In this document: positions 1 through 32,544 of the stretch, in pieces
Position numbering within the stretch: position 1 is the first letter of the stretch
Layout of the letters: each line of letters opens with the position of its first letter
DNA from: a virus
Taxonomy: Duplodnaviria > Caudoviricetes
Length of the DNA stretch: 64,000 nt
Strand: one strand, 5' to 3'
IMG/VR virus record: IMGVR_UViG_3300029288_003882
Location: 1 to 64,000 of that record
Made by a program: the position numbers and the translations under genes
The notes under the pieces: generated by a model
The model's input: the letters and a program-made list of their open reading frames with translations, nothing else
Told to the model about the DNA's origin: nothing
Databases searched by the model: none

Positions 1-2
1 GG

Positions 3-545
3 TGGGGGGCGTGGTCACTTGCAACGCTTGAACTAATGACCTGCGGAAAACCAATTCTTGCAATCGATGGACGTTCTGCGCCCGAACTTTTGGGAAAAGA
101 TTACCCATTATTTTTCGCCAAGGCGACTGAAGACAAAGACGCATACAAAGGCTTCCGAAGAAAACTTTTATCGATGATAACTGATAAAGAAATGTGCAAG
201 AAAGTTGGTGAGAAAAACCGCGAAAGAGTAAAATCGATGTTCGATTGGGAAAAGACCATCTTTGAGTGGGATGATCTTATATTGAAGCATTGCGATTTTG
301 ATTTATCGAACGACGACTCGGAAGGTAAATTGAAGTTGCTTGAATACGTCAAGAAGAAAGGCTCCGCTTCGAAGCGTGATATATTAAATCAATTCGGGGG
401 CGCTATTTCTTATACAAGATACAGGAAATACCTCCTGACGCATGGGATATACGACGATTACACGAAAGCGGAGGTTGAATACACATCAACGATGCCGACA
501 GAAGGCTTCAAGGAAGCGTCGGAAGATTGGGAGGAATTGTTTTGA
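3..545 (+). CDS. GT-B (GT4-like) glycosyltransferase C-terminal part fused to a probable winged-helix domain; 5'-truncated by window edge
   Basis: Frame is open from base 3 (WGAWSLATLELMTCGKPIL, matching the GT4 E-x7-E-AM-x-G-x-P region), then FDWEKT helix, then LLEYVKKKGSASKRDILNQFGG wHTH-like segment. Confidence 0.7.
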   Translation, partial: WGAWSLATLELMTCGKPILAIDGRSAPELLGKDYPLFFAKATEDKDAYKGFRRKLLSMITDKEMCKKVGEKNRERVKSMFDWEKTIFEWDDLILKHCDFDLSNDDSEGKLKLLEYVKKKGSASKRDILNQFGGAISYTRYRKYLLTHGIYDDYTKAEVEYTSTMPTEGFKEASEDWEELF

Positions 546-1063
546 ACCCAGTCGCCGTTTTCAAGGATATATATCAAGATTGCCTCTGCGAAGACATCGG
601 CGAAATGACATGCGCCAAAGAATACACCATAATTATCCGCCCGTTCAATTTCAACTTTGACGAATACATAACTAAGACAATGCAAGATTATATGGAACGG
701 ATATGTCCACCTGGAAATGATATGACCAAGGACATCGTTAATAGTATCGACGAAGTTCTAAAATCAGGAACTTTCCCGTATGCAAGACTAAACAAAACGG
801 TGATCACCGACAAGAAATTTTATACCGTTGTTCCTGAAAAGAAATATTTCTCATTTTCTGGTAGATACATCAACAACGCAAAGAAGATTTTGGGCGACGA
901 TTGCGAAATATTTTTACCCACTGTTTGTATCGTGGGTTATGCGCTTGCAAAGGATAAAAAATATATCGTGATGTTCTCGCCTGAAATCGGTGACGAACTT
1001 AATATTACCGAAGAAACAAAAGAGGAAAAGACCGACGATCTTGACGACAATAATTTATGGTGA
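542..1063 (+). CDS. hypothetical replication-operon protein
   Basis: ORF 527..1063; likely TTG start at 542 after GGAGG, overlapping upstream TGA; ends DDLDDNNLW. Confidence 0.7.
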   Translation: MNPVAVFKDIYQDCLCEDIGEMTCAKEYTIIIRPFNFNFDEYITKTMQDYMERICPPGNDMTKDIVNSIDEVLKSGTFPYARLNKTVITDKKFYTVVPEKKYFSFSGRYINNAKKILGDDCEIFLPTVCIVGYALAKDKKYIVMFSPEIGDELNITEETKEEKTDDLDDNNLW

Positions 1064-1067
1064 TTTT

Positions 1068-1349
1068 ATGCCATTTGCACAACAAAATCCAGAAGTCTAT
1101 AAGAAGATAAAGAACGAAAGATATGGCTACATTTGCCCGGAATGTGGCAACGTCGAAAAGTTCCAGCAATATATTAATTGCGTCAAGGATTTAATGCAAG
1201 ATGATAAGACAGGCAAAATCATATGGTATGGAAATGATACCGATATGAATTTGAAGCCTCATGTTACCGAAGTTCAATGCGCAGAATGTGGTGCAACGGC
1301 ACAAAAATGCAAGAAAGGAATTACTTTTGAGATGGAGTTCGTCATATGA
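1068..1349 (+). CDS. zinc-ribbon protein
   Basis: CPECG ... CAECG; GGTGA SD before ATG 1068. Confidence 0.75.
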   Translation: MPFAQQNPEVYKKIKNERYGYICPECGNVEKFQQYINCVKDLMQDDKTGKIIWYGNDTDMNLKPHVTEVQCAECGATAQKCKKGITFEMEFVI

Positions 1350-2149
1350 TAGAACAAAAAATAATTATTGGTGATTTCCTGGACGGGGGGGGCATTATTA
1401 AGGATAATAGTGTCGATCTAATTTTAACTGACCCACCGTATAATATATCCACAGAAATTACCATATTTCGTGGAAGCAACCCAATGAAGTTCAAAGGAAC
1501 GGATATTAAAGGTGATTTTGGTGAATGGGACCATTTTGAATCGGAGGAAAAATATATCGAATTCACTGAAGCATGGCTCGATCTATGTCATAAAAAATTA
1601 AGACCTGGTGGAATGTTCATATCATACTTTGACCGAGAAAGGATAAATTCTTTGTCGAATTATTTAAAAAAGAAATACAAATATAAATTTAAGGATTACT
1701 TTGCACATCTTAAAAATAATCCAGTACCGCAGGCAAGGATGGTAAAATGGATGTCTGCTTGGGAAATGGTTTGTATGTTGCAAAAACCAGAAGGTAAATT
1801 AACGTATAATTACAAATTGGGACAACAAAAGAATTATGCCATAGTATCTATCACAAGTCAAGGCGAAAGAATTGTTTCCGCGAAAGGGAAGACACATCCC
1901 ACGCAAAAGCCAGAATCGATAATCGAATTGTTCATTAAATATTGGTCGAACGAAGGTGATTTAATACTTGACCCATTCTGTGGGACAGGAACAACGTTAG
2001 CAATGGCGAAACGTTTAAGACGAAATGCCATCGGCTTCGAAATCGACGAAGACTGGAAGTACCCAGTTGAAAAGCGCATACAAGATACACACGAATCTGC
2101 AGAAGTCTATTTGCAAAATGATACACTTGACGAAGGTGAATTATTTTGA
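1346..2149 (+). CDS. DNA N4-cytosine/N6-adenine methyltransferase (beta class)
   Basis: LILTDPPY catalytic motif precedes DPFCGTGTT SAM-binding motif; HPTQKP motif. Confidence 0.93.
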   Translation: MIEQKIIIGDFLDGGGIIKDNSVDLILTDPPYNISTEITIFRGSNPMKFKGTDIKGDFGEWDHFESEEKYIEFTEAWLDLCHKKLRPGGMFISYFDRERINSLSNYLKKKYKYKFKDYFAHLKNNPVPQARMVKWMSAWEMVCMLQKPEGKLTYNYKLGQQKNYAIVSITSQGERIVSAKGKTHPTQKPESIIELFIKYWSNEGDLILDPFCGTGTTLAMAKRLRRNAIGFEIDEDWKYPVEKRIQDTHESAEVYLQNDTLDEGELF

Positions 2150-2301
2150 CCGAAGAAATCATAGATCACTATTGCACACGGTGTGGACGACGCTTGAAAA
2201 ATCCACAATTGATAAATGGAAAATATTACGGTGTCGTATGCGCCACAAAGATTGCAATATCAAACCATAGCCAGATCGGGACATTCGATGAGATGATTTA
2301 G
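2146..2301 (+). CDS. 51-aa zinc-finger microprotein (DUF6011-like), absent from ORF track
   Basis: Hand translation MTEEIIDHYCTRCGRRLKNPQLINGKYYGVVCATKIAISNHSQIGTFDEMI; TTG start 6 nt after GGTGA; fills the MTase-primase gap exactly. Confidence 0.65.
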   Translation: MTEEIIDHYCTRCGRRLKNPQLINGKYYGVVCATKIAISNHSQIGTFDEMI

Positions 2302-3459
2302 ATGGTGGTAAACGTTGAAAGGGATATTTACAGGAAGATATTACAACGGTACAACTTCGACATGTATCCCCGAACTGTGGGTTTTCCAGTCCAAAGGTTC
2401 ATTGGTGAATTTAAGGATTTCTGGAAATTTTTCGATTTCACCAGAGGTGAAAATACCTGTTTTACATCGACACAAAGTTATCCGAAATTAGCAATGAGTA
2501 ACAACAAGGTAAAACCCATTTCTATTTCGATGAACAACATTTTTTCAGATTTTGACGAATCGACAAAACCGGAAAATGCCTTGCGTGATTGCAGAAATAT
2601 GACCAACTTCCTTATCAATGAAAATATACCATTCATCAACAATTATTCTGGGTCCAAAGGATTCGCCAATTATATCATCTTGAAACCACAAACATACAAG
2701 TATATCGCCTCCCAAGATTCTGGTAAATCATTGAAGTTATTAATCTATGGTGTGCATTTGTTCTTTGAAAAAAAGTTTAAGATGACGACGATGGACAAAA
2801 AGGTTATGAAAGACCCAAAAAGATTATGTCGTATGCCTTACTCACCACATTGCAATCGTGAAAACTATTTGAGTGGGCGTCATTGTTATCCGTTGACAAT
2901 GGAACAATCCTTGAAATGGCAAATAAAGGAAATAACCGATTACGCATACAATCCAGAAGTTATCATACCAGAAGTCCAAGGAAAAATGATGACGTTAACC
3001 CAACTTGTCGATTATCTTAATGTTGACTTCGAGCAGGTTGAGCAGGAAATAGAATTCGCACCGACGAATAGGAAAGACGTTGGTCAAATTCAAGACGACG
3101 AAACGCAATTACTATTATGTATGCTCGACAAAATGAAGCCTTGCATAGCCAACAACTTGCGGACGATTAATCCTGATCATGATATGCGCTTCGCCTTCGC
3201 CGTGTGGATGAAAAGACTTGGTAAAACCCGTGAGGATGCAGAACGTCATTACGTCAATATCGGAAAACATTTCGGGTATGTTGACTTGCACAACGAAGAC
3301 GAAAGACGGGTACAGTTCGACAATATCTTTAATAATGATTATAAGTATGAACCCTCCTGCAATACAATTATACGGAATGGCTTTTGCATAGCCGAAAAAT
3401 GCGACCGTTTCCATTCAGCGTGGAAAGGTCACGAACATAAAAGGTTGGCGACGAAATGA
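2302..3459 (+). CDS. priS: archaeo-eukaryotic primase: PriS catalytic domain fused to PriL-type C-terminal Fe-S domain
   Basis: SDFD, YSGSKGF, D..RLCRMPYS (PriS motifs); KPCI...H..RFAF...PSC..I....C....C (PriL-CTD pattern). Confidence 0.85.
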   Translation: MVVNVERDIYRKILQRYNFDMYPRTVGFPVQRFIGEFKDFWKFFDFTRGENTCFTSTQSYPKLAMSNNKVKPISISMNNIFSDFDESTKPENALRDCRNMTNFLINENIPFINNYSGSKGFANYIILKPQTYKYIASQDSGKSLKLLIYGVHLFFEKKFKMTTMDKKVMKDPKRLCRMPYSPHCNRENYLSGRHCYPLTMEQSLKWQIKEITDYAYNPEVIIPEVQGKMMTLTQLVDYLNVDFEQVEQEIEFAPTNRKDVGQIQDDETQLLLCMLDKMKPCIANNLRTINPDHDMRFAFAVWMKRLGKTREDAERHYVNIGKHFGYVDLHNEDERRVQFDNIFNNDYKYEPSCNTIIRNGFCIAEKCDRFHSAWKGHEHKRLATK

Positions 3460-3728
3460 AAACAAAAAATGTGGACGAATTCATAGGCGTTATGCGAACG
3501 GTTGACCAGTTTTCATTCGACGAAATAATGCCCATAACTTTTGAGGAATGCCTCAAGAAGATCACTGTGGACCAGATTGATAATTTTGGTGATTTAACCG
3601 AGTGGTTGAAAGAAAAGGGATTTACTGAATTCGAACTCGGATTTATTCTCGGGTTCATTCATCACAAAGTGGCAAAGAACGAGGACAATGGTGGGGATAA
3701 TAAATATGAAATTCAGTACCTTCGTTAG
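3456..3728 (+). CDS. hypothetical protein
   Basis: 90-aa ORF with ATGA overlap on primase stop. Confidence 0.65.
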   Translation: MKTKNVDEFIGVMRTVDQFSFDEIMPITFEECLKKITVDQIDNFGDLTEWLKEKGFTEFELGFILGFIHHKVAKNEDNGGDNKYEIQYLR

Positions 3729-4542
3729 TTCGCCAAAGATTATACAAATGAAATTAGAATACGGCAATATCGCCGACTGGATAGCAATCGCTCGGCAAAG
3801 TATCGCAGAAAAGCAACCAACTTTTGAATTGAAAGGCGATACATTTACCATAAACGATGTGCAAGACCTTTTCCTCAAAAAAGTAGGATATGAATACGTC
3901 AAAAGAAAGCCTTGCATAGATCACCGCGAACTGGACGAAATGATAGATTTATCCAAGGAATTCGGGTTTGAGGTCGTTCAGTTGAAATTGGGCGAAGGTG
4001 ATTACCAGAGTGAACGATACGATACCCAAACAATCAACATAGAAAGAAAAGACAACGATTTTATCCCGTCTTTGTTCCACGACAAGCACATTTATGAGCA
4101 ACTAAATGCAATGAGAAAAAACCCGAACGTCAAGGCGTCTTATCTCATTTGCACAAAATCTTGGCAACAAATAAAGCGAGATATGGAATCAAGACATAAA
4201 CCATTACCACGCAACTTGTTAATATCGTATGTCGGTGAATTAGCATTGATGGGATATCCTCCGATATTCGTCGATGACTACCGCGATTATATGGATTTGG
4301 TTGAGTATCTCTTCGATGCATATTATAAAAATGTCAACCGCGCAAAACGTATTAATAATGCTATAAGTATAAAAGAAAAGAACATAATAAAATTTCCAGG
4401 AGTCTCGGACAAATTGGCGGAAAGATTGCTTGAAAAGTTCGGTTCAATTAAAGGGGTTTGCAATGCAACCCCAGAACAATTACTCGAGGTCAAAGGTATC
4501 GGCGAAAAGACCGCCCAAGAAATATACAAGTTGGTGAACTAA
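3688..4542 (+). CDS. ERCC4/XPF-family structure-specific nuclease with tandem HhH domain
   Basis: IDHRE, GDY, IERK nuclease motifs; PGVSDKLAERLLEKFGS and VKGIGEKTA HhH motifs; start 3688 or 3706. Confidence 0.88.
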   Translation: MVGIINMKFSTFVSSPKIIQMKLEYGNIADWIAIARQSIAEKQPTFELKGDTFTINDVQDLFLKKVGYEYVKRKPCIDHRELDEMIDLSKEFGFEVVQLKLGEGDYQSERYDTQTINIERKDNDFIPSLFHDKHIYEQLNAMRKNPNVKASYLICTKSWQQIKRDMESRHKPLPRNLLISYVGELALMGYPPIFVDDYRDYMDLVEYLFDAYYKNVNRAKRINNAISIKEKNIIKFPGVSDKLAERLLEKFGSIKGVCNATPEQLLEVKGIGEKTAQEIYKLVN

Positions 4543-5552
4543 TGAACTTCAATGAGAAATATCGGGTGAATTCTCTCGACGACATCAAAGGGCAAGAATA
4601 CGAAATTATGAAATTAAAAGCCATCGTGAAAAAAGTCCACGATCATATAGACGATGGCGACTGTCCGCATTTGTATTTTGAAGGCAAACCAGGAACTGGT
4701 AAAACCACCGTTGCAATCGCTTTCTTAAAAGACTTATTTGGTAAATCTTGGGATATGAACTTCAAAGAATTCAATGCATCGGAAACCAGAATCGAACAAA
4801 TAAGGACAGAAGTCATCGATTTGGCGCAAAAACAGGTTTTAGGTGAATACAAAACAAAAGACGGAAAGATTTACGACATACCATTTAATACTATATTCTT
4901 CGATGAAATCGATTATCTTCCCCCAAAATCACAGGCTATTCTGCGTCGTATTATGGAGGTCAATGCCACAAATACAAGGTTCATCTTATCCTGCAATTAC
5001 GGGCACAAAGTCATAGACGCTCTTAAAAGCAGATGCGTTTGTTGCCATTTCGGGAGTTTACGTCCAGATGCAATAAAGGAAATCTTGAACCCGATAATCA
5101 AAAAAGAAAGTATCAAGATTGAAGACGACGCTTTGGAACTTCTTGCGAATTCGTCAAGCGGTGACGCAAGAAAGGCGCAAAATATCCTATTCAAGGCGGC
5201 GCTTTCTGGTAAGGTGACAAAAGAAGAAATCGAACGGGCGACCACGTCGATACTCGAAGCATTCAATACCAAGATATTGGAACTTGCGATTGTATCGAAT
5301 GCGGCGAATGATGCAACATACGACAAGAACTTTAAGATAATAGAAAACCACATCAATAGGCTATACTATGAAAGAGGTTATTCCGCCACTCAAATCTTGA
5401 TTAATATCTTTGATAGTGTCAACAACGACGAAAAAATACCAATCCCTGTCAAGCGCAAATTATTCGGTTCTATTGCCGAATGTTTGCGGGATTGTTCTAT
5501 CGTGGACGATGACTTATATGCCTTAAAAATGTGGTTGAGGGGATTAAAATGA
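4542..5552 (+). CDS. rfcS: replication factor C small subunit (clamp loader)
   Basis: EKYR, GKPGTGKTT, FNAS, FFDEID, RFILSCNY, SRC motif; start taken at TAATG overlap. Confidence 0.93.
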   Translation: MNFNEKYRVNSLDDIKGQEYEIMKLKAIVKKVHDHIDDGDCPHLYFEGKPGTGKTTVAIAFLKDLFGKSWDMNFKEFNASETRIEQIRTEVIDLAQKQVLGEYKTKDGKIYDIPFNTIFFDEIDYLPPKSQAILRRIMEVNATNTRFILSCNYGHKVIDALKSRCVCCHFGSLRPDAIKEILNPIIKKESIKIEDDALELLANSSSGDARKAQNILFKAALSGKVTKEEIERATTSILEAFNTKILELAIVSNAANDATYDKNFKIIENHINRLYYERGYSATQILINIFDSVNNDEKIPIPVKRKLFGSIAECLRDCSIVDDDLYALKMWLRGLK

Positions 5553-6316
5553 AAGCCGTGGTCGACGTTCAACTATTGAAAAAATTTATCAACCAATTTC
5601 CGTTGATATACGACATTGCGCTTTATTTCCAAGACGACAAGATTTTTATCCAAGAGCAGGATTCTGGTCATTGCGCCATGATAATGTCGTCGATGAAGGT
5701 TTTAATGTCGGATAATTTTTGCACCAAGTTTAAGATCGCCGACGCAAACGATTGCCTAAAAGTTAAGGGTGATATTGTCATCGAACTAAAAGATAAAAAA
5801 TTACTCATCGATAACAAAACCATAAAATGCGAATTAATCACCGACGAACGCAAGACACCAAAAAATTTCGAATTCGATAATATGGTCTCAATCGATAGAA
5901 AATTATTAAGTTCTTTGAAGCCTATTGGTAATTATATCCACATAACGATGAACAGGAACGGGTTAAGAATTTATTCCAAAGACGAAGAAAAATCGGAAGA
6001 AATATACATACCAAAAGGGTCGTTTAGGTCGATGAAATGTGCCGGAGAATCCAGATCATTATACGGAAATAATTTGTTGGTGCCATTAATCAAAAATCTT
6101 CCAGGTGATATAATACAACTCGAATTCAAAAGTGGTTCGGACGAAGCCGAAAAATGTGCCCCTATGAGTATAAAATATAGGGATGAAAATATAGAAACCA
6201 ATATCTTCATTGCGCCAAGATTTTGCGACGAAGAACACAACGACATTAAAGATATTCCACCAATCGATGAAAAGAAATTCCAGTCTCAAACGTTCGACGA
6301 CGACGAACTATTTTAG
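5549..6316 (+). CDS. pcn: PCNA-like DNA sliding clamp
   Basis: QEQDSGHCAMI (D-x-x-h-V motif), two beta-rich halves, C-terminal PMSIKY...IFIAPR; lies between RFC and PolB. Confidence 0.82.
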   Translation: MKAVVDVQLLKKFINQFPLIYDIALYFQDDKIFIQEQDSGHCAMIMSSMKVLMSDNFCTKFKIADANDCLKVKGDIVIELKDKKLLIDNKTIKCELITDERKTPKNFEFDNMVSIDRKLLSSLKPIGNYIHITMNRNGLRIYSKDEEKSEEIYIPKGSFRSMKCAGESRSLYGNNLLVPLIKNLPGDIIQLEFKSGSDEAEKCAPMSIKYRDENIETNIFIAPRFCDEEHNDIKDIPPIDEKKFQSQTFDDDELF

Positions 6317-6324
6317 GTGACAAA

Positions 6325-9093
6325 ATGCCAAAAACTGGAAATTTGCGCCGTGAATTGATACGGGTAACAAAGATAGATTATTACCCACATCAAACGGATA
6401 AAACTGCTTTTCGTGATGAACTAATCACGATTATCTGGGGCGTAAATGAAGAACGCAAAAGGGTGGAATTGCATGTCAAAGGATGCATTCCTCGTTTTTG
6501 GGTAGACGAAGACCCAGAGGAAATAGAAATCGACGAAGAAATTAAAAAATATATTGTCAAAGTCAAGAAAGAAGGAAGATCATTCATCGACAATAAGGAA
6601 TTGTGGTGCATATACGTAAAATATCCTTATGGTTTAATCTTTCAACCATTGCGTTCATACTTCAAAAATCACTATCAAGCCGACGTTTATTTCCACGAAG
6701 CCGTTAGATACTTTTATGGCATCAAGACATACATATCCATCCCTTATCGAAAGTATTCCCTTAGCATTGGCGAAGTTGTCCCCGTCGATAATCCCGAAAA
6801 GAAGATACAAACGAACGATTATATCCTTGACATCGAAACAAGCGATACTAAAGGATTTGCCGCACCTCGGAACCCAAGTGCCGAAATACGTTGCTTGACA
6901 TTACGGTCAGTTGAAACGGGCGAAATATGGTCGGGCATCACGAAGAAGGTGGATAAAGCAATCGTGGAAAAATTGCTCAAGGATAAAGAACTTGTCAACG
7001 AAGCCGTTAAGCATGACGAAGATGTGGTTCCACCGCTTGAATCGAATTGTAGGATAAACATTTTCGAATTTTATAAGGGTGATCGGGAAGATAACGAACG
7101 GGAATTACTCAACTGGTTCAAATCAATCTTTGAAACGTTATCAATAACTACAATTGCAGAATATGGCGATTATGACCACTCATACATCATTGAACGGGTA
7201 AAATTAATGAATGGTAACATCAATTTGTGGAATCATAAGAACAAAGGCAATCGGCAATATTATCCAAGACACATCTTTAAACCTATTACCATCGGTGATT
7301 TGGAAAGATTTTATGAAAAGTTCGTAGGTTCGGCAAAAGCGTCTGGGAGAACTGCGCTTGAATGGATGGGGCAAGAAGAACTCGGATATGGTAAATTCCA
7401 GCGGGCAGGCATCGATGAACTTTATGAGAAGAATCCAGAATTTTTAATGGCATACAATATGTGGGATTGCATTTTGCCCGACCGTGTTATGAAGAAATGT
7501 GGCGAACTTCTGGAAATCCATAAAGAGGTTTGCGATTATATGGGATGCAATCTTGAAAGTTGGAATATGCCGATGCTTCAATGGGAAGCCATAGTAATGC
7601 ATCGATTGAAGAACAAGGAAATTTTACCATCTATTGACACAATTATCCGAGATGCAGGAATGGAAGCTGGGGGATTTGTAACTGAAAACGCCGCATGTGG
7701 AATGTTTGAAAATATGGTCGAGCTTGATAATAGTGGCGAATATAATGCGGTAGTCCTTACGGGCAACATCGATCATAAAACGCTTATACGAAACGACGCC
7801 GAACTAATGCAGGTAGAAAACGAAGGACTAAGAGTTGCCAAATTTCCGTCAGGTCGTTCCTATCTTCTTGATGTCAAAGGGATAATACCAGAAATTCTCA
7901 AAGAAATGATTAACAAGATTAACGAATATAAAAAATTAATAAAAGAGGCGAAGGCGCAACTCAAAGAACTACATAAAGAACCTGAAAAGAACAAAAAGGA
8001 AATCGAAGAACTGGAAGATCGCCTTGAAATTCTTGACCAGTTAAAATACGTCCCAAAATCGGGCACATTGTCATCAACTGGTCTTTATGGAACAGGTCGT
8101 GAAGGAAGAAAACGACCATTCAGACTTGCACACGGTGGAATGGCAAGCGATATAACGGAATGTGGTCGTTATCACGAAAGTTGGAATAAAGAATTTATAG
8201 AATCTCACAGTTATAACATGCGAACAAACGAACTTTGGAAACATGGTGAAGAACAAAAAGTTCCGATAGATGAAGCACCATTTAATACCCCAGAAGAATT
8301 CTTACGCCTCATTGTCATCGGACAAGACACCGATTCATGCAAATGTAAAATAGTTGGTAAACTTCCTGACTTGAAAGGTCGAGAAATGGAAACGTTCTTG
8401 ACTAAAATGGGTGATTGCTATTGCAAAGAACTTAATAAATCGTTTGACGAATTCGCCAAAAAAACCCTAAATGTAGATAAGCATTATTTCATGATAAAAT
8501 TGGACGCAACATACAAAAAATATTTCCAATGGGGTGCAAATAAAAATTATGTCTTCAAAGATTTCAACGACCAAATCCACTACAAAGGCGTCCGCCTTGT
8601 CAAGCGCGGTACTGCATTCATCATCCAAGAATTTATGAGAAAGTTCTTTGATATTGTCATGGCTGATATTCCTGTGGAAGAAATCAAGACCAAGATCACC
8701 GAATTAATGCGAACATACGAAGCGGATATTTTAGCGGGAAAATATACCATAGAATGTGGTGAACCTCGGAAGACGCATACGGAAACATTATATTGGGATT
8801 CAATGACGCATTCAAACACCATATTCAATAAAGAATTCCGTATGGACGAAGTTGCAATATTTTTCCCAGCTACTGCAATAGTGGGTCATCCTTTGCCAAA
8901 AAATAAACAAGTAGCCTTGGAATATGGTGATGACCCAATAAAATTTGGCATTAAACTTGATTATGAAGAGGTGTTAAGAAAAGTTAAAAAGTCAATTGAG
9001 ACAATCTTGTTAGCAATAGACAAGAACGCAACATGGGAAAATCTTGTCGAAGGAATAGAAAAAGGAAATATCGATGACGAAGAACTTTGGTGA
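6325..9093 (+). CDS. polB: family B DNA polymerase with 3'-5' exonuclease
   Basis: ExoI LDIET, ExoIII YNMWD, motif C DTDS, KNY and KGV motifs; motifs A and B divergent. Confidence 0.93.
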   Translation: MPKTGNLRRELIRVTKIDYYPHQTDKTAFRDELITIIWGVNEERKRVELHVKGCIPRFWVDEDPEEIEIDEEIKKYIVKVKKEGRSFIDNKELWCIYVKYPYGLIFQPLRSYFKNHYQADVYFHEAVRYFYGIKTYISIPYRKYSLSIGEVVPVDNPEKKIQTNDYILDIETSDTKGFAAPRNPSAEIRCLTLRSVETGEIWSGITKKVDKAIVEKLLKDKELVNEAVKHDEDVVPPLESNCRINIFEFYKGDREDNERELLNWFKSIFETLSITTIAEYGDYDHSYIIERVKLMNGNINLWNHKNKGNRQYYPRHIFKPITIGDLERFYEKFVGSAKASGRTALEWMGQEELGYGKFQRAGIDELYEKNPEFLMAYNMWDCILPDRVMKKCGELLEIHKEVCDYMGCNLESWNMPMLQWEAIVMHRLKNKEILPSIDTIIRDAGMEAGGFVTENAACGMFENMVELDNSGEYNAVVLTGNIDHKTLIRNDAELMQVENEGLRVAKFPSGRSYLLDVKGIIPEILKEMINKINEYKKLIKEAKAQLKELHKEPEKNKKEIEELEDRLEILDQLKYVPKSGTLSSTGLYGTGREGRKRPFRLAHGGMASDITECGRYHESWNKEFIESHSYNMRTNELWKHGEEQKVPIDEAPFNTPEEFLRLIVIGQDTDSCKCKIVGKLPDLKGREMETFLTKMGDCYCKELNKSFDEFAKKTLNVDKHYFMIKLDATYKKYFQWGANKNYVFKDFNDQIHYKGVRLVKRGTAFIIQEFMRKFFDIVMADIPVEEIKTKITELMRTYEADILAGKYTIECGEPRKTHTETLYWDSMTHSNTIFNKEFRMDEVAIFFPATAIVGHPLPKNKQVALEYGDDPIKFGIKLDYEEVLRKVKKSIETILLAIDKNATWENLVEGIEKGNIDDEELW

Positions 9094-9097
9094 TACA

Positions 9098-9433
9098 ATG
9101 GGAAAATTCGGCAAACTAATGCGGGTATGTGTGGGCGAGGTTGGCAAGCCTTCGTTTTTTGGTGAGGTCATAAGTCCTTATACGAAGATAGAACTTTTGA
9201 AAAATGCAAGAGTTACGCCAGCATTCAATGACGACAACGCAGTAGGAATTGTGGACAGGATTGAAGTCATCGACGGGAAAATAATGGCTGATATCCGCGT
9301 CGATGAAGGCTGGTTTAACAAGACTATAAAGGTCAACTTTGCACCTGCTGGATACGCCGATGAATTCGACAAGAAGACAAAGAAAATATCCAAGTTCATC
9401 GTGACCTCCATTGGCGCAACGTTCACGGGATGA
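9098..9433 (+). CDS. hypothetical protein
   Basis: GGTGA SD then ATG 9098; stop overlaps rfcL start. Confidence 0.65.
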   Translation: MGKFGKLMRVCVGEVGKPSFFGEVISPYTKIELLKNARVTPAFNDDNAVGIVDRIEVIDGKIMADIRVDEGWFNKTIKVNFAPAGYADEFDKKTKKISKFIVTSIGATFTG

Positions 9434-10452
9434 TATTGATGGATTGGGCGTTAAAACACCAACCAAGGACACCGAAAGAATACATCGGGATGAAATCAGA
9501 TATCCAGATCATATCGAACTTTCTCGATTTGTGGATAGGTGACGTCCCGCCAAAGAAAGCAATTATTTTATTCGGTGAACCTGGAAATGGTAAAACGTCC
9601 ATAGTTTATGCGCTTGAATCGACATACAACCTAAATATCATTGAAGTCAATGCCTCGGATGACCGCAATGCGACAGACATCAAGAAGTTATACCATAAGA
9701 CAGGATTAAACGCCTTTGACGACAAAATGACTGTTATGTTGCTTGATGAAGTGGACGGCATCAACGCTTGGGAAACACTTGGAACGCTTGTGGATAATAG
9801 CATGTGTCCTATATTTATGACTTGCAATAATATCGATGTCGTACCGTATGACTTATCAAAGAAATGTATATCTTTGGAGATAAGATATCCACCAACTGAT
9901 TATGTCATTCGAAGACTAACGGAAATAGCACGGAAAGAACATCTTGATATGGACAATAGGGCAATATCAACGATAGCCGAACGTTGCATATCTGTAAGGT
10001 CGGCAATCTTGACATTGCAATCATGTGCCTTGACAGGTTCGACGAAGCGAATTATACCGCATGATGTCGATTATTCCGAGTATGAACAAATCAGAAGGCT
10101 TTTTTCTGGTGAATCTTGCGCTTTCGATTTATCTCCCGAGGTCGTCAAGAAATGGGCAATATCAAACGGTGTTCCAATCCATAAACTTGACAAGATGATC
10201 ACCATGGGACGTGAATATCCAAACCTTCAAGATGTGGTGGAATCTTATGCAATGACATTAAGGGGTAACATTGAAAAGTTAAAATCACCGTATTACGTTG
10301 CTTTTAAGAAGTTCAAGAAAAAAGAAGCGACAAAGAAAGAAGACGAAGACGAAAAACCAAAAAAGAAGTTCGTTGCAAAAGAAGAAAGAAAACCCGAAAT
10401 CGAGAAAGCCGTAGTTGTCGGAAACAACTCGTTCGGTGATGATTTATGGTAA
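9430..10452 (+). CDS. rfcL: replication factor C large subunit
   Basis: W..K..P.T, GEPGNGKTS, IEVNASDDR, LLDEVDG, PIFMTCN, lysine-rich C-terminal tail. Confidence 0.9.
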   Translation: MILMDWALKHQPRTPKEYIGMKSDIQIISNFLDLWIGDVPPKKAIILFGEPGNGKTSIVYALESTYNLNIIEVNASDDRNATDIKKLYHKTGLNAFDDKMTVMLLDEVDGINAWETLGTLVDNSMCPIFMTCNNIDVVPYDLSKKCISLEIRYPPTDYVIRRLTEIARKEHLDMDNRAISTIAERCISVRSAILTLQSCALTGSTKRIIPHDVDYSEYEQIRRLFSGESCAFDLSPEVVKKWAISNGVPIHKLDKMITMGREYPNLQDVVESYAMTLRGNIEKLKSPYYVAFKKFKKKEATKKEDEDEKPKKKFVAKEERKPEIEKAVVVGNNSFGDDLW

Positions 10453-10715
10453 GAAAACGAGAAGCAATCAAACAAAAAATGACCCCATTGACAAGATTGG
10501 TTTTATTTCTGAAATCTGAAGGCTTCAATAGTGCCCAAATAAGGTACATTTGCACAAAAGTCCTACATATCAAAGGCGCCAAAATCCACGTCAAGATCAA
10601 TATGTATGTTAAATTTGTGGAAATCCAAGAAGCACAACGCCGCTTTTCCTCTGAACGAATCGCCACAAAACTGCGCATGTGCGGACTGTTGGAAGAAATT
10701 AAAAAAATTACCTGA
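10446..10715 (+). CDS. hypothetical basic protein
   Basis: GGTGA SD, overlaps rfcL stop. Confidence 0.55.
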   Translation: MVRKREAIKQKMTPLTRLVLFLKSEGFNSAQIRYICTKVLHIKGAKIHVKINMYVKFVEIQEAQRRFSSERIATKLRMCGLLEEIKKIT

Positions 10716-10733
10716 AATTATAACAAAGTTTAT

Positions 10734-14579: not shown

Positions 14580-16971
14580 TATACGTTGTAGGCTTCAATA
14601 CTTCGACGCTTGACAATGTAAATGCCATAGTCTTCTTGCGTTCGTATGTCCAAGCCAGTTCACGCAAGATAAAATTACCATAGGCGTTATATCGTGCCGA
14701 ATCGATTTCTACCGTTTGTCCTGGAAAATAATCGAAGCGATCTGGCACGAACTTAACAGTTATCTTCTTTGGTATCTCGTTGTGCGCTCTCACCCATCCA
14801 CGGGCGACTTGATAACAAGCATCGACACCGATGAGCGAGGTATCGGATATATTTTTGTGTCTTGGGTTATCTGGGAAATCAGGTATTGGATTATTCTCTG
14901 GGTCTAATTTTCCTGGATAGTATGCGCGGACACCATTTGCACCAACAACTGTTGCACAATCGAAATAATAGGAGCCATCTATTTCAACCGATAAATCGGT
15001 GATTTCGGCATCGGTTAATGTCACTGCTGGTTCCTGATTTTCATAATCTGGAAGGGGTGCAAATATCACACTATCATTTTTAACGTATATGTGGTAAATT
15101 GTCCCGTCGTCGTTGCCGCCGATGACAAGATATAATAATAATTTTATCGCCTCGAGTCTGGATTTATCTGTTAAATCGATTGAGTCAACTATGACGCCCG
15201 TCTCGATGTCGATACCGCCAGAATCGATGTCATGACCAGAATTTGAAATAATATCTTTGATGATTGCGCCCGCATCTGTGCCGGCATATTTTCCTTCATT
15301 TGGCGGAATGTGTTCGTTGTTCAATGCTTGCAAGACATCATAACAAGCGAACTGGACAGATTTAGGGGTGATCTTGGTCGTCAAAACATTTCCTTTAAAG
15401 ATTCTATCGTCGACCTCGGTTGGCGGGGTTAACTCTGTTTCAAAAGTCAAATCGTCGCCATATGGGTCTTCTACGGTATTGGTGATCACTGCGCGGAAAT
15501 GATAAACGGTCAAGTCATCGAGACCAGTTATTGTTTCTGATATTACATTTCCAACCCTTTTGCCAGTTCTATGTGTCGTTTCTGAACCATACGACAAAGT
15601 TTTACCATATTGGAAATAAACTTCGCAATCTTCGCCAGAATCTTCGGTTACTTCGGCGGAAATTGTTGCGTATGTATCGCCTACATCGGTTGCTGCTTGC
15701 GTTTCAATCGTCGGGCAAGGTTGCTCATCCGTCTTAAACGTCATATCAGAACCAGTAGTTGCGCCCTGATTGTTACTGATAGCCGCTTGGTAATGATATG
15801 TGGTATCTGGGTCCAATCCTGTCAACGCGGCGAAAGGAGTATTTCCAACTCTTTTGCCTGTTTGATGTGATGTTGAACTACCATATCCTACAGTTTTTCC
15901 ATAATTAAACCAAACTTCGCAATCTTCAGCGGAATCTTCCGTTACCTCTGAATTTACGGTTGCACCAAAATAACCAATATCTGTCGCTGCGTCTGTATCT
16001 ATTGCTGGTAATGGAGGTGTATCAAATTCACCGTCGGCGCCATATGTTGTGCCTTGGCTATTCATGATCACAGCACGGAAATGATATGTAGTATCTGGGT
16101 CAAGAGACGTTATATTTTCTGCTATTGTGTCAGGTATTCTCTTTTGTGTTTCGTGATTTGTTTCCGTTCCATAACCTGTATCAAGCCCATATTCCAACCA
16201 AACCTCACAATCTTCGCCACTATCGTCGATGACTGTGGCGTTTAATGTCGCTTGCGTCGATGTTATGGCGGAAGCTGGGTCGGTTTGAACAACGGGTGGC
16301 GCAGGAGGAAACCATTCACCTTCTTCTGCATATAATGAATCACATAACCAGGTTGTTGTCGGTAATTGTGACCAATCTGCAGGCGTGCCATACCAACAAT
16401 TGGCATCCGGATTAATATTTTTGTTATTGGCACCTAATACCGCTATATTTATTTCTGTGTCAACGACCGCAGTTATTTCATATGAAGCCAATAACGTTGT
16501 TCCTGCATCGTCATATACATAAACAGTTAATTTTTTGGATGTTCCATTATAACTCAATATCAATGTATACCATGTATTATCACTTAACGAATATCCCATG
16601 TCCTCGTCCTTATGATATATCCCATGTTGCGAATCGATACGAGCCCTTAGAGCACCAGTCCTATCTACTGATACTCCGAGAACATCAGCGTATAACCACG
16701 CTTCAAAAAATCCCAGAAAACCTATTGAATTGGCATGAGCATTAATAAGATTAGTTGGTGATCTTATATGCATAATACCGTGGAAGTCTTTTGTGAGGTC
16801 TTGTCCAGCAGAAAGAGATTGCCCAAATCTCTGACTGCTACCGGCACTTGTATAAAACGAAGTCCATAAATGTGCTCCACCATCAGTTGAATAATTCGCA
16901 CCGTAGGTAGTATTAGTGCCCACGACCGAATCTGATAATGCTGTTCCTGATTTATCGAGTAAAACTACCAT
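14569..16971 (-). CDS. tail baseplate hub/Tal-like protein with N-terminal lectin-like and three fibronectin-III-like domains
   Basis: Three ~93-aa repeats, then IFKGNV...FACYD, GAIIKDII, FPGQTVEI hub-like pattern; located downstream of tape measure. Confidence 0.7.
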   Translation of the reverse strand: MVVLLDKSGTALSDSVVGTNTTYGANYSTDGGAHLWTSFYTSAGSSQRFGQSLSAGQDLTKDFHGIMHIRSPTNLINAHANSIGFLGFFEAWLYADVLGVSVDRTGALRARIDSQHGIYHKDEDMGYSLSDNTWYTLILSYNGTSKKLTVYVYDDAGTTLLASYEITAVVDTEINIAVLGANNKNINPDANCWYGTPADWSQLPTTTWLCDSLYAEEGEWFPPAPPVVQTDPASAITSTQATLNATVIDDSGEDCEVWLEYGLDTGYGTETNHETQKRIPDTIAENITSLDPDTTYHFRAVIMNSQGTTYGADGEFDTPPLPAIDTDAATDIGYFGATVNSEVTEDSAEDCEVWFNYGKTVGYGSSTSHQTGKRVGNTPFAALTGLDPDTTYHYQAAISNNQGATTGSDMTFKTDEQPCPTIETQAATDVGDTYATISAEVTEDSGEDCEVYFQYGKTLSYGSETTHRTGKRVGNVISETITGLDDLTVYHFRAVITNTVEDPYGDDLTFETELTPPTEVDDRIFKGNVLTTKITPKSVQFACYDVLQALNNEHIPPNEGKYAGTDAGAIIKDIISNSGHDIDSGGIDIETGVIVDSIDLTDKSRLEAIKLLLYLVIGGNDDGTIYHIYVKNDSVIFAPLPDYENQEPAVTLTDAEITDLSVEIDGSYYFDCATVVGANGVRAYYPGKLDPENNPIPDFPDNPRHKNISDTSLIGVDACYQVARGWVRAHNEIPKKITVKFVPDRFDYFPGQTVEIDSARYNAYGNFILRELAWTYERKKTMAFTLSSVEVLKPTTYIKP
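15436..16296 (-). repeat. three tandem FN3-like coding repeats
   Basis: aa ~226-512 repeat EDS.EDCEV.F.YG.T..YG..T.H.T.KR.G...L..DT.YH..A.I.N. Confidence 0.9.
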
Positions 16972-27493: not shown

Positions 27494-28143
27494 ACGCCTT
27501 TTGATTCGAATTGCTGAAACGTCTTCATACCTCTTTTCTCAAATTCATTTGCCCACCAATTGGGAGAATGAAGACTGAAATGAGAGGGATTTTTATTCTT
27601 ACCTATCGATATTGTGGGTTCGTTTGTTTCTTTTCCTATCGGTGTGCTTACAACAAGAAAGTCCTTGGTTACCCTTATGTGTTCATCTATTGCTTTTGAT
27701 AGTTGCCCGTCGTCTTCTGGAATGTGTTCAAGAACTTCCATAGATATGACGAGTTCGAACATATTGTCCTTTATGTTGTTCTTGTCAAGTTCGCAAACGT
27801 CGCCTACGAACAGGTTCTTTATTCCCTCGTTGACGCCACGACCAATCGCATATGCGCTAATGTCTATCCCCATTGCGTCAACCTTTGCGTTCTTTTGCAA
27901 CGTCTCGACAAGATAGCCGACGGCACATCCAAGAACTAAGACATTATTTGGCAATCGTGATTTACCGAACTTCTTACCGAACGTATATCCTGCCATGTCT
28001 AAAATTTGGGCGCATTGTTCGATCTTGAAAGGCAAATATATTTCACGAGTATATCCACCTCGAGGATTGGAAAAGCCATAACTTGACTTCGTATCCTTGG
28101 TAAAATATTCTTCGTCGAAAAAATCAGCTCCGTATCGCTTCAT
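27451..28143 (-). CDS. class I SAM-dependent methyltransferase
   Basis: VLVLGCAVG, GIDISAYAI, SMEVLEHIP. Confidence 0.88.
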   Translation of the reverse strand: MKRYGADFFDEEYFTKDTKSSYGFSNPRGGYTREIYLPFKIEQCAQILDMAGYTFGKKFGKSRLPNNVLVLGCAVGYLVETLQKNAKVDAMGIDISAYAIGRGVNEGIKNLFVGDVCELDKNNIKDNMFELVISMEVLEHIPEDDGQLSKAIDEHIRVTKDFLVVSTPIGKETNEPTISIGKNKNPSHFSLHSPNWWANEFEKRGMKTFQQFESKGVCVIVFEKPCTKTN

Positions 28144-29390
28144 TTTTTCACCTCCATACGTTCGTTAGCCGCCTTTCGCAAGATAAAGTTGGCTTCGTTT
28201 GCTATGTCGTCCCACCCAAAGTTCTTCTTTGCAAATCTGAAGGCTGCCTCTCCCATTTTCCGCGTTTCGCTTCTGTTGTCGTATGCATACTGGAAGGCTT
28301 TTGCCATTTCGTCAACGTCAACAATAGCCCTCCGTATGTTGTATTCGCCCATGACGTAATCATTAGGTGGGATTAAAAAGCCTCTATCGTCGCCTACAAG
28401 TTCGGCGCTCGATGTATAATCGGTGATCACCGCAGGCGTGCCACAAGCCATCGCCTCCACAGTTGGTATTCCGAAGCCTTCGCCACTTGTCGATGACGCA
28501 TAAACATCAAACAAATTATAGAAAGCCGCCAATTGTGAAACGAGAATACCGTCATCGAGTTTATCCGTTTGGTCGATGAACAATACCTTTCCTTGTTCGA
28601 TCTTCTTTTGCTTGATGTATTCGTATAGGTTATTTCCTTGCATTGTTCTATTTGCGGGGTCGCCAACTTTCATAAGCATAACGGCGTCTTTCTTATCCTT
28701 GGCGAATTTGGCAAAAGCATCTATTACTTTTGTATGTTGCTTTCTCATACAATTCTTGCCTATGACACCCACGCAAAACGTATCTGGGTTTTTCTTAAAG
28801 AAGTTTTGGCGATTTTCTTCTCTAAGATTTCTTGCCAGAGGTTTGAAAGTATCCAGATCAACGCCGTGGTATAGATGTGGCATTCCGAAATGTCTTGTCC
28901 ATCCACCTCGACCAAAATCCATAACCGCTTTCGTGACCACATCACGTCCATATTTTGACATTGCGAGAGGTGTATGCGTCTTTTTTATCATATCAAGCCA
29001 CGGTGTATAGAACGGGTCACCATCGACGGGGAAATAGTTCACGTAAGGAACGCCTGCCTCATTACAATAGTCTATCAATCCCTCCGTAAACCAATAATCG
29101 ATTAGTGAAAATGCACAATCGGGTTTAAACGTCTTCAAATAATGCGGGAACTTTTCTGGGAAGGCAGGGTCGAGCATCGACGTTAGCCCGTGGTTCAATT
29201 GAAGATATATCCCACCTTTTCCGTCGCCGTATTCTTGCGGCATTCCGTTGTGTTGCCAACCGACGTGATAACATTTCCAGCCACGTTTCGCAAGACGTGG
29301 TAAAAGATTTGCCATAACGACGCCATATCCCGTTGGCATAAGTGTCGATTCGCTTCCCGATAATAGAGTTAATATTTCTTTGTTCGACAT
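28140..29390 (-). CDS. GT4 glycosyltransferase
   Basis: PTGYG, HGVD, EGFGIPTVEAMACGTP; start taken as ATG 29390 downstream of TATA box. Confidence 0.92.
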   Translation of the reverse strand: MSNKEILTLLSGSESTLMPTGYGVVMANLLPRLAKRGWKCYHVGWQHNGMPQEYGDGKGGIYLQLNHGLTSMLDPAFPEKFPHYLKTFKPDCAFSLIDYWFTEGLIDYCNEAGVPYVNYFPVDGDPFYTPWLDMIKKTHTPLAMSKYGRDVVTKAVMDFGRGGWTRHFGMPHLYHGVDLDTFKPLARNLREENRQNFFKKNPDTFCVGVIGKNCMRKQHTKVIDAFAKFAKDKKDAVMLMKVGDPANRTMQGNNLYEYIKQKKIEQGKVLFIDQTDKLDDGILVSQLAAFYNLFDVYASSTSGEGFGIPTVEAMACGTPAVITDYTSSAELVGDDRGFLIPPNDYVMGEYNIRRAIVDVDEMAKAFQYAYDNRSETRKMGEAAFRFAKKNFGWDDIANEANFILRKAANERMEVKK

Positions 29391-29419
29391 AACAATCAAT
29401 CTTTGAAGCGAATTATTAT

Positions 29420-29433
29420 TATATAAATATTTT
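29420..29433 (-). promoter_or_regulatory. archaeal BRE-TATA promoter of glycosylation cluster 1
   Basis: Minus strand GAAAAATATTTATATA about 30 nt upstream of ATG 29390. Confidence 0.55.
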
Positions 29434-29871
29434 TCACCACAAAACGGTGACCTCAAAGACTTGCACCCATGTTAGGCAATCGTTTGCTTTATTCTTATCA
29501 ATCGCCCAATCGTTCTCAATTATTAGATCATCTACATAATCGGTAGGATTGTGTGATAACGTCGTATTTTGGAAAATGCGTCTCATTTCATGCACCATTT
29601 CACGTCGGATATCCTCGTTATAACCAGATACATGAACAAAAATCGACGCTTGATAAATTGTAGGCGACGACGACCTATCCATATCTCTTTGTTGATAGTT
29701 TGTAATTGGTTGGAATTTACCGTCTTTTCCTGTCAAGTATATCTGGCGTTCGTCTTGACGATTCGTCTCAAAATACGCCTCATTAACTTTGGTTGTCCAA
29801 CCTGTTATCGTGAAATTTGCAAGTATAAAATCTTTGACTACCTTCCGTGGGTCAATGTCGTCTACCGCCAT
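29434..29871 (-). CDS. tail terminator/completion protein
   Basis: Size, position after adaptor, SIFVHV and VQVFEV strands. Confidence 0.6.
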   Translation of the reverse strand: MAVDDIDPRKVVKDFILANFTITGWTTKVNEAYFETNRQDERQIYLTGKDGKFQPITNYQQRDMDRSSSPTIYQASIFVHVSGYNEDIRREMVHEMRRIFQNTTLSHNPTDYVDDLIIENDWAIDKNKANDCLTWVQVFEVTVLW

Positions 29872-29873
29872 AG

Positions 29874-30545
29874 TTATTCATCCGTCATGTCTTCGAGTTC
29901 GGAAACAACGCTTTCATCCCGCCATTTTCCTATCGTATGAACGGCAAGGTTTTTATGGCGAATCTTTGTATTAAGCAATTCTTCCACGCGGGACATCCAA
30001 CCGCCTATTACCTTTTCCCATTTGTTTATTTGTTCTTTGCATTCCTCTTGGAATTCTCTTGAAGTTGCCAGATCGACCGCAGTCATCAAGATGCAACATT
30101 CTTCCACATAAGAAGGTATTTCAGAATGCCCGTATATGTATGTTGTTTTTACTCTTTCCGTTCCGACATCTGGTGTATCCCAAAATCGTACCATACCAGA
30201 ATTCGGCTTCTCAAGCCAATAATCGTCGTTGTTTCTATCACGACCTTGAGTTGCGAGTGTGTATTCTGTGCCGTCATAAACCGACAATTCGGTTACCGAT
30301 ATGACTGGATATTTATCGAGAGGCATTCTTGGATTTCCAACAATATCGTGATATTCATCAGTGACGGTTGTTGGATTAAAATTCATCCCGTGCTCTTCGT
30401 TAATGCGTTTTGACTTTCGCGCGATAAGTCTTTCTACCATACTGGGGTCGAATTTCCCACCAGATATTATCCAGACTTGATTATCAGATGAATATTTACC
30501 CAATATATCATTGATGTCCTGTACCATGCAAAACATAACTGGCAT
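29874..30545 (-). CDS. head-tail adaptor (gp6/gp15-like with beta insertion)
   Basis: LIARKSKRINEE, YPVISV, TYIYGHSEIPSYVEECC pattern. Confidence 0.72.
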   Translation of the reverse strand: MPVMFCMVQDINDILGKYSSDNQVWIISGGKFDPSMVERLIARKSKRINEEHGMNFNPTTVTDEYHDIVGNPRMPLDKYPVISVTELSVYDGTEYTLATQGRDRNNDDYWLEKPNSGMVRFWDTPDVGTERVKTTYIYGHSEIPSYVEECCILMTAVDLATSREFQEECKEQINKWEKVIGGWMSRVEELLNTKIRHKNLAVHTIGKWRDESVVSELEDMTDE

Positions 30546-30546
30546 A

Positions 30547-30577
30547 ATGATATATATAACGGTGCAAGTATTTTAAA
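30547..30577 (-). promoter_or_regulatory. second-class promoter for adaptor operon
   Basis: Minus strand TTAAAATACTTGCACCGTTATATATATCATT immediately before ATG 30545. Confidence 0.55.
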
Positions 30578-30581
30578 TTAT

Positions 30582-31860: not shown

Positions 31861-31880
31861 TATTATCTTAAAATATGCAA
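31700..31880 (+). ncRNA. predicted TnpB omega/reRNA scaffold plus flanking guide
   Basis: Inferred from established TnpB biology (RNA overlaps tnpB 3' end and right end); 5' boundary is a guess. Confidence 0.45.
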
Positions 31881-32238: not shown

Positions 32239-32251
32239 ATTTCTCCCTCCA

Positions 32252-32536
32252 TTACGGTGGCGGCGGTGGTACAGGAGGTATAATAGCAACGATTATACCG
32301 TTTGCAACCATTACCGTATTTCCTTGAGCGTCTTCAAATTGTCCCGTAAACCCACTAACCGCTGGTGTTAAAATTGTTTCAGTTCCTTTGGTGATCACCC
32401 TTATAGTTCCTGTTGACGAATGAACATAAACGAGACGATTAGCCAATCTTGATATGTATCCTTGTTTCTTTGCGTAAGCCATCGCCGCAGATAGATTTGG
32501 TTGTTCGCCCAACCAATTTAAGTTTTCAATAGCCAT
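32252..32536 (-). CDS. hypothetical virion protein
   Basis: GAGG SD; C-terminal PPVPPPPP; within structural operon. Confidence 0.6.
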   Translation of the reverse strand: MAIENLNWLGEQPNLSAAMAYAKKQGYISRLANRLVYVHSSTGTIRVITKGTETILTPAVSGFTGQFEDAQGNTVMVANGIIVAIIPPVPPPPP

Positions 32537-32544
32537 ATTTCGCC

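Follow-up and report, generated by a model that had tools for sequence, protein, structure and literature searches.

A shared acidic C-terminal tail on replication and DNA-modification proteins of an archaeal-type tailed virus, a candidate ligand of the viral sliding clamp

Introduction

PCNA-interacting protein (PIP) boxes are known from the C-termini of archaeal and eukaryotic family B DNA polymerases (PolB), replication factor C (RFC) large subunits, Fen1 and RNase H2, and follow the consensus Qxx[LIM]xx[FYW][FYW]. In archaea both PolB and the RFC large subunit (RFC-L) end in such a box, which takes the form QxxLxxFx in haloarchaea (PMC7776575). The present work concerns a tailed virus (Duplodnaviria; Caudoviricetes) in which these proteins carry a different ending. 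In the window analysed, a stretch of 64,000 nucleotides (nt) corresponding to positions 1 to 64,000 of the IMG/VR virus record IMGVR_UViG_3300029288_003882, six proteins, PolB, RFC-L and the sliding clamp among them, terminate in a short acidic peptide closed by Leu and a Phe or Trp, hereafter the tail. Comparison with related viruses indicates that the tail is a real, selected and virus-specific linear motif common to the polymerase, to the large subunit of the clamp loader and to enzymes that modify DNA. It is proposed here, with moderate confidence, to be a degenerate, strictly C-terminal and lineage-specific PIP-type peptide that would bind the virus's own PCNA. Full-text literature searches, which covered the articles in part, retrieved no earlier account of such tails in tailed viruses of archaea.

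The closest precedent is the gp45 clamp system of T4 and RB69. In T4 the proteins gp43, gp33 and gp55 have highly similar, interchangeable hydrophobic-acidic C-termini, placed after a variable linker, that bind the C face of the clamp (PMC2988020). As in the virus described here, a tailed virus encodes its own PCNA-fold clamp and an RFC-like loader, and unrelated proteins end alike. The two systems differ in their clients, which in T4 include transcription factors and here are DNA-modifying enzymes and RFC-L. They differ also in the peptide, since here the aromatic residue is always the last one and the clamp itself carries the tail, and in the clamp, a member of the PCNA family (its relatives pass Pfam PCNA_N) and not of the gp45 family.

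An acidic run followed by hydrophobic-x-Phe at a free C-terminus is also the replisome docking handle of the bacterial single-stranded DNA-binding protein SSB (SSB-Ct, DDDIPF) and of T7 gp2.5 and gp4. There, one hub carries the tail and the clients have the pockets, whereas here many clients carry it. None of 35 tails has Pro at -1, and the named carriers, namely PolB, RFC-L, PCNA, methyltransferase (MTase) and glycosyltransferase (GT), belong to non-SSB families. An SSB-Ct-type tail, which calls for an OB-fold single-stranded DNA-binding carrier and the sequence D-D-D-[IL]-P-F, was rejected on these grounds. The bacterial beta-clamp motif QL[SD]LF was rejected as well: the tails have no QL, and the virus, compositionally foreign to the bacterial bin that holds its contig, encodes a PCNA-type clamp and an RFC-type loader. 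A further comparison is offered by Rad9, a PCNA-fold subunit of the 9-1-1 checkpoint clamp that continues, like the viral clamp, into a long disordered C-terminal stretch. The Rad9 tail binds intramolecularly to the clamp core; a folding back onto the ring, in competition with ligands, has been proposed for it. It is long, phosphorylated and eukaryotic, whereas the viral extension ends in the peptide of the presumed clients.

The tail in the replication module

The six C-termini that a sequence-only reading of the window had singled out are present exactly as claimed. The features concerned, with the two neighbours needed for comparison, are the following.

3..545, + strand: C-terminal part of a GT-B-like glycosyltransferase (weak Pfam Glycos_transf_1 match, E = 0.004); tail SEDWEELF at 519-542
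542..1063, + strand: 173-amino-acid (aa) protein, function not assigned, no Pfam or PHROG family; tail DDLDDNNLW at 1034-1060
1346..2149, + strand: N4/N6 DNA methyltransferase (Pfam N6_N4_Mtase, E = 6e-43); tail DTLDEGELF at 2120-2146
2146..2301, + strand: 51-aa Zn-ribbon-like protein, 5' of the primase; degenerate tail GTFDEMI
4542..5552, + strand: RFC small-subunit-like clamp-loader ATPase (NCBIfam RFC small subunit, E = 1e-63); no tail
5549..6316, + strand: PCNA-fold sliding clamp, 255 aa; core 1-228, acidic extension of 27 residues at 6233-6313 ending QTFDDDELF
6325..9093, + strand: PolB (Pfam DNA_pol_B); tail NIDDEELW at 9067-9090
9430..10452, + strand: RFC large-subunit-like protein (NCBIfam RFC large subunit, E = 4e-37); tail NSFGDDLW at 10429-10449

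The strict pattern [DE][DE].{0,2}L[FW]$ is matched by 6 of the 91 open reading frames (ORFs) of at least 80 aa on contig C9, which carries the window, all of them inside 1-10.5 kb, and by none of the 2,597 ORFs on the other 20 contigs of the bin. With a loose definition (aromatic end, aliphatic residue at -1 and at least one acidic residue at -5 to -2), the tail is found in 6 of 13 ORFs of the replication module versus 21 of 2,597 elsewhere (0.8%; Fisher p = 1e-9). From the weaker echoes that had also been proposed, GTFDEMI (2301) proved to be a real degenerate copy, the orthologues of the 51-aa protein being tailed (DDERIW in the related contigs L013/L021, GDEDIW in L001 and KDARIW in L022); PVDELFS (54816) and ADNDEL (58266) found no support. 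The protein identities on which the reading relied stood for the most part: MTase, PolB and the RFC-small-like and RFC-large-like proteins are recognised by Pfam or NCBIfam, and PCNA by its Atlas fold and its relatives, while the GT depends on the weak match given above.

Distribution in related viruses

PolB relatives were found neither in IMG/VR nor in the species-genome collection; metagenome contigs supplied them, and the neighbouring genes were read on eight related metagenomic virus contigs. The seven PolB homologues (29-55% identity) all end in acidic-[LIT]-[WF]. Counted by family, the tail is present in PolB (8/8), RFC-L (6/6), PCNA (3/3), the MTases (9/9, as tail or PIP-like end) and the GT (2/2), and absent from the RFC small subunit (RFC-S, 0/7), primase (0/5), XPF (0/3), Mre11 (0/5) and Rad50 (0/4); the small basic protein encoded after RFC-L is never tailed. 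All five RFC-L orthologues end in ELW, ALW, DIW, SIW or DLF, and the PCNAs of relatives in DDLW or DALW. Three MTases of L001 end in DIW, those of L021 in KLW, KLF and WDVIY and that of L022 in WDVIF. The GT of L006, in the same gene position as the window GT, ends in SSWEMF, and a protein of L006 like the tRNA-guanine transglycosylase (TGT) or DpdA ends in GWDELF. Small or unassigned proteins of 48-51, 173-178, 287 and 420 aa are tailed as well. Tailed proteins number six in the window and six each in L001 and L006; the L013/L021 and L007/L022 lineages have seven or eight, and HVTV-1, a cultured virus of haloarchaea, has seven. One PolB homologue (P0004, 1,319 aa) contains the intein-type Pfam domains PF14528 and PF14890 and keeps an acidic tail, ending DDDDTW.

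In HVTV-1 the seven replication-module proteins end in VL[DSGE][FWY], an ending matched by just one further greedy ORF of 149. They are PolB, RFC-L, an MTase, a GNAT protein, a DUF6610 protein beside queuosine-type genes, an HNH protein and a 167-aa protein. The presence of the tail on a TGT/DpdA-like or DUF6610 protein suggests a DNA base exchange coupled to the clamp. Genes of the 7-deazaguanine (queuosine-type) pathway lie in L006 at 4128-5624 and 15144-15596, and in HVTV-1 (L023) at 27786-34252. In the distant TARA relatives L016 and L017, PolB ends in QTTMEDWF[AS], a canonical PIP box, and the L016 MTase has a SLDGFF-like end.

Each virus has its own dialect of the tail: ELF or LW in the window, DIW six times in L001, DALF/W in L007/L022, and W-[ED]-x-hydrophobic-F, such as WEDLF, in L006. 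The identity of residues -3 to -1 is 0.47 within one virus versus 0.33 +/- 0.025 with shuffled labels, a value reached by 0 of 20,000 shuffles. Such dialects are what co-evolution with one common receptor predicts. Together with the conservation by protein family and the variation of synonymous codons described below, they bear out the earlier proposal of a virus-specific linear motif.

The dialects bear also on the possibility that the tails act on their own carriers, either as acidic DNA-mimic or autoinhibitory tails that fold onto the DNA-binding surface of the same protein, or as C-terminal degrons controlling when early proteins are broken down. Every carrier is DNA-binding or DNA-acting, and the acidic C-tails of SSB and T7 gp2.5 bind their own DNA-binding clefts. 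Nevertheless, the strict terminal aliphatic-aromatic pair, the shared anchor and a dialect shared over unrelated folds imply one pocket, and we know of no degron that fits the motif, so self-binding or a degron is regarded as highly improbable.

Translational coupling

The genes of the module are tightly packed, and the tail might be a by-product of translational coupling, in which the Shine-Dalgarno (SD) sequences and start codons of downstream genes force Gly, Asp, Glu and Trp-stop codons. The sequence-only reading had raised this caveat, and it is true: the codons of five of the six window tails overlap a downstream SD (GGTGA or GGAGG) or start codon. At the junctions 545, 1063, 2149, 6316, 9093 and 10452 the coding is dual, since Trp-stop (TGG TGA) and Gly-Asp/Glu (GGT GAx) spell the SD GGTGA, and TTA-TGG and GAT-GAT contain ATG. 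The PCNA tail alone is free of overlap, as had been noticed, because its SD sits in TAG+GTGA 3' of the tail. Genes ending in Phe use TAG, and TAG+GTGA then spells AGGTGA.

The coupling explanation fails on several counts. Of the bin's 903 tightly coupled gene pairs, just 6 show the loose tail, and the genes for RFC-S, primase, XPF, Mre11 and Rad50, which overlap their neighbours as tightly as the tailed ones do, are always tail-less. The tails that end in Phe give no SD or start. Tails are kept before intergenic gaps of 24-52 nt, as in the 817-aa MTase of L021 (52 nt) and the TGT-like protein of L006 (24 nt), and they persist in orthologues at such uncoupled junctions. Moreover, heavy synonymous variation lies beneath identical peptides: KTFDNDALF is encoded with six of nine codons different in the L007 PolB and in the 178-aa protein of L022, and all six Leu codons are used at -1. 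The comparison of homologues with control for coupling, proposed by the earlier reading, showed that the tail follows the protein family whatever the downstream junction, being neither enriched at coupled non-replication genes nor lost at uncoupled junctions. The codon and homologue comparisons thus indicate that the tail is selected at the protein level and not created by coupling, the latter being extremely improbable.

The viral clamp

The 255-aa clamp has no Pfam match, and an exhaustive HMMER search of 1.8 billion representatives retrieved only the protein itself. Its ESM-Atlas model (predicted template-modelling score, pTM, 0.79) aligns over residues 1-228 to PCNA families with template-modelling (TM) scores of 0.78-0.80, and with a truncated ORF of L013 the sequence shares 24% identity (E = 9e-7 against a small database). 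The profile of the window clamp and the L013 fragment retrieved P0011 and P0012, both of which pass Pfam PCNA_N (41.8 and 33.5 bits, cut-off 20.3); a third search added one marginal match. Because of the Atlas fold, the L013 match and the two relatives that pass PCNA_N, the window protein is identified as a PCNA-fold clamp of the PCNA family. AlphaFold2 models of the clamp were of low confidence, with a mean predicted local distance difference test (pLDDT) of 33.6 for the sequence alone and 39.9 with a three-sequence alignment. Among GenBank viruses its relatives are PCNAs of haloarchaeal viruses only. Between the window and L013 the PCNAs are 24% identical and the PolBs 55%; the virus possesses a clamp of its own, and this clamp evolves fast.

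Three clamps extend 27-42 acidic residues past the conserved LAPR strand and end in DDDELF (window), NNDDLW (P0011) and NNDALW (P0012). The PCNAs of phiH and HRTV-DL1 end directly after the LxPRI strand, without extension. The window clamp has a net charge of -1 in the core and -6 in the extension. Viral PCNA cores with net charges of -1, -5 and +4 stand against -20 in P0013 and -35/-44 in halovirus PCNAs, these figures being whole-core net charges and not a map of the surface. In human PCNA the surface around the pocket is strongly negative and prefers basic flanks, acidic flanks disfavouring binding (PMC6881253). From the charges of the viral cores and this preference, we infer a charge-shifted, private pair of clamp and peptide.

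A clamp was not found in the available parts of L001, L004 and L006. The search by profile comparison in L001 and L016 gave 2% probability, and two clamp candidates of HVTV-1 gave no signal. HVTV-1 encodes RFC-S, RFC-L, PolB and a divergent clamp according to PMC4889955. With no clamp in the parts of L001, L004 and L006, tail and viral clamp are seen together in three lineages only, to which HVTV-1 is added from the literature.

The tails might instead target a host protein, host PCNA or another replication factor, in order to recruit or sequester it. The missing clamps would fit such a target, as would the use of host-type PIP boxes by viruses without their own clamp loader: in HRTV-8, which has no clamp loader annotated within the 31 kb flanking PolB, this polymerase ends in QTGLAAFC and no shared tail was seen. 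Virus-specific dialects and a fast-evolving viral clamp favour, on the contrary, a viral receptor; acidic flanks disfavour binding to cellular PCNA (PMC6881253); and a clamp carrying a ligand of host PCNA makes little sense. A host target is hence judged improbable.

The tail as a clamp-binding peptide

The sequence-only reading had seen in the tail a code replacing the PIP box. A virus-specific motif does occupy the PIP position; it is most likely not an unrelated code, and reads as a degenerate, acidified and loosened PIP derivative because of its position on PolB and RFC-L, the PIP-spaced copies and the canonical QTTMEDWF of a distant relative. The likeness begins with the C-terminal position on the same carriers, the window tails being the last 7-11 residues of PolB, RFC-L and MTases (cf. 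PMC7776575 and PMC3201878). It extends to a hydrophobic anchor followed by a terminal hydrophobic/aromatic pair, to the hydrophobic-x-x-aliphatic-aromatic spacing of WEELF (GT, alone among the window tails) and of WEDLF, WDELF and WDVIF (relatives), and to a cognate PCNA encoded by the virus (window 5549-6316; homologues P0011/P0012). The consensus Q-x-x-[LIMV]-x-x-[FYW]-[FYW] does not occur in the window tails; the PolBs of L016/L017 have it and the L006 tails nearly so. The flanks of the tail are strongly acidic, whereas PIP flanks are basic, and the tail ends exactly at the C-terminus.

In form the tail is a hydrophobic anchor (F/I/L/W), two to six mostly acidic residues, Leu or Ile and a terminal Phe or Trp, and on the above basis it would tether PolB, RFC-L, methyltransferases, the glycosyltransferase and, in relatives, the DpdA/TGT-like transglycosylase to the viral PCNA-fold clamp. 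Replication, clamp loading and the modification of new DNA would then run off one sliding platform, and rapid co-evolution of clamp and tails could produce one dialect per virus. A clamp core without the usual strong negative charge would here meet acidic tails, an arrangement opposite to that of cellular PCNA, whose PIP flanks are basic. In the clamp itself, the tail is carried by an acidic linker of 27-42 residues that starts beside the position of the PIP pocket of PCNA. This tail may act as a built-in competing ligand, filling free pockets in cis or on an adjacent subunit, from which a client or RFC-L would have to displace it.

Several observations weigh against a clamp-binding tail. Most of the window tails are without Gln, have an aliphatic and not an aromatic residue at -1, and space the anchor by 3-6 residues; in the five whose codons also supply an SD or start to a downstream gene, the choice of residues may be biased, W-stop giving GGTGA. 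The charge argument relies on whole-core figures, and the clamp is missing from the available parts of three relatives. A tagged clamp, moreover, is explained more simply if all tailed proteins, the clamp included, dock on another hub, and the clamp's tail fits this arrangement and the self-ligation of pockets equally well.

PCNA would in that case be one more client, by a logic like that of Ctf4 and the CIP-box or of T7 gp5 binding the gp2.5 and gp4 tails. Candidate hubs are the 579-aa DinG-like helicase, a 663-aa protein, an unrecognised SSB, the RFC small-subunit ring and a basic 89-aa protein. The tailing of PCNA in all three lineages where it was found agrees with a separate hub, as does the resemblance to the acidic tails of SSB-Ct and T7 type, which an aromatic residue closes, and a conserved, tail-less basic partner exists in the 89-aa protein (isoelectric point 10.4, net charge +13, five relatives). 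Nothing found speaks positively for any of the candidates; where the tail sits on PolB and RFC-L, the PIP-spaced copies and the canonical PIP box of L016/L017 point to a clamp pocket, and a client list of MTases, transglycosylase and GT suits a platform that slides on DNA. Docking on a non-clamp hub is therefore considered unlikely, and binding to the viral clamp is retained as the best explanation.

Genome and host

The end of contig C9 (83,415-83,910) repeats window 1-496 over 496 bp with 98.8% identity. Therefore, C9 is a complete tailed-virus genome, circular or terminally redundant, with a length near 83.4 kb, and the GT gene that opens the window begins at the contig end. The replication module occupies 1-14.6 kb of the window on the + strand. 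It comprises, in order, the C-terminal part of the GT-B-like protein, the 173-aa protein, a 93-aa ORF, the N4/N6 DNA methyltransferase, the 51-aa protein, an AEP-primase-like protein, XPF/ERCC4-HhH, the RFC-small-like protein, the 255-aa clamp, PolB, a 111-aa ORF, the RFC-large-like protein, three small basic proteins, Mre11 and Rad50. Genes for tail, portal and terminase proteins lie on the minus strand between 14.6 and 50 kb.

The bin that holds C9 is a complete bacterial genome with a DnaN beta clamp and an SSB ending in NEDEIPF; PCNA and PolB were not found in it apart from C9. The tetranucleotide correlation with the core contigs is 0.80 for C9 and at least 0.985 for the other large contigs. 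No 20-mers are common to C9 and the rest of the bin, so that neither a spacer nor an att site points to a host. C9 is separate from the bacterial bin and compositionally foreign to it, and its membership in the bin is not demonstrable. Contigs C9, C11, C12 and C13 show correlations of 0.66-0.85 with the core contigs and are likely foreign or mobile. The C9 sequence occurs in one public sequencing run only, a landfill metagenome that is probably the source sample and so says nothing independent about habitat. An archaeon is the probable host, because the replication proteins are of archaeal type, the kin of the clamp are haloarchaeal-viral, and PCNA and RFC are reported in archaeal and eukaryotic viruses only (PMC4889955).

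Other proteins and intergenic elements

The Atlas model of the 173-aa protein (542-1063) is weakly like beta-clamp domains (TM 0.45-0.52), and the protein could be a second one of clamp fold; by BLASTP it groups with MTases. In L021 and L022, unnamed tailed proteins of 173 and 178 aa lie directly 5' of PCNA and end in KTFDNDDLW and KTFDNDALF, respectively; they did not cluster with the window protein in BLASTP. The RFC small subunit and its orthologues have a conserved basic-hydrophobic C-terminus of their own (KMWLRGLK, KMWLRKLKL, KTWLRSLKL), which overlaps the SD and start of the clamp gene. The 89-aa protein is encoded at 10446-10715, after RFC-L, and its orthologues are likewise tail-less; it may be a DNA-binding protein or an alternative hub.

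Beyond the module, a topoisomerase-like protein (phrog_6247; L020 4430-5356, equal to C9 68.4-69.4 kb) and a DinG/XPD-like helicase (phrog_2488; L020 779-2518, equal to C9 64.8-66.5 kb) have no tail. The 663-aa protein has no match in Pfam or PHROGs. The intergenic word TGTTATAACAAAGTTTA is conserved 5' of genes in three viruses (window 10716-10733, L021 ~7961-7990, L022 ~3403-3432). Within it an A/T-rich box comes after the palindrome GTTATAAC, and the word may serve as promoter or operator.

Implications

What sets this system apart is that the clamp itself is tagged, that the chemistry is acidic and that DNA-modification enzymes are among the presumed clients. A bolder proposal, put forward tentatively and with some doubt, is an orthogonal, charge-reversed clamp-client system in which a non-acidic PCNA, self-plugged by a client-like tail on an acidic leash, would admit through its private dialect viral enzymes only. 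These would include the hypermodification enzymes (methyltransferases, glycosyltransferase and 7-deazaguanine transglycosylase), so that nascent DNA would be modified at the fork; alternatively, all tagged proteins would assemble on a non-clamp hub.

If the tails bind the viral clamp, their presence would predict which unannotated proteins (48-51, 173-178, 287 and 420 aa) act at the fork, and in archaeal-type tailed viruses the clamp would physically link DNA methylation, glycosylation and the insertion of 7-deazaguanine with replication. The clamp and its peptides would moreover constitute a natural orthogonal pair, with reversed electrostatics and a self-liganded clamp, that would inform on how viral and host replisomes are kept separate. 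HVTV-1, a cultured virus with a parallel pattern, provides a system in which these relations are accessible at the bench.

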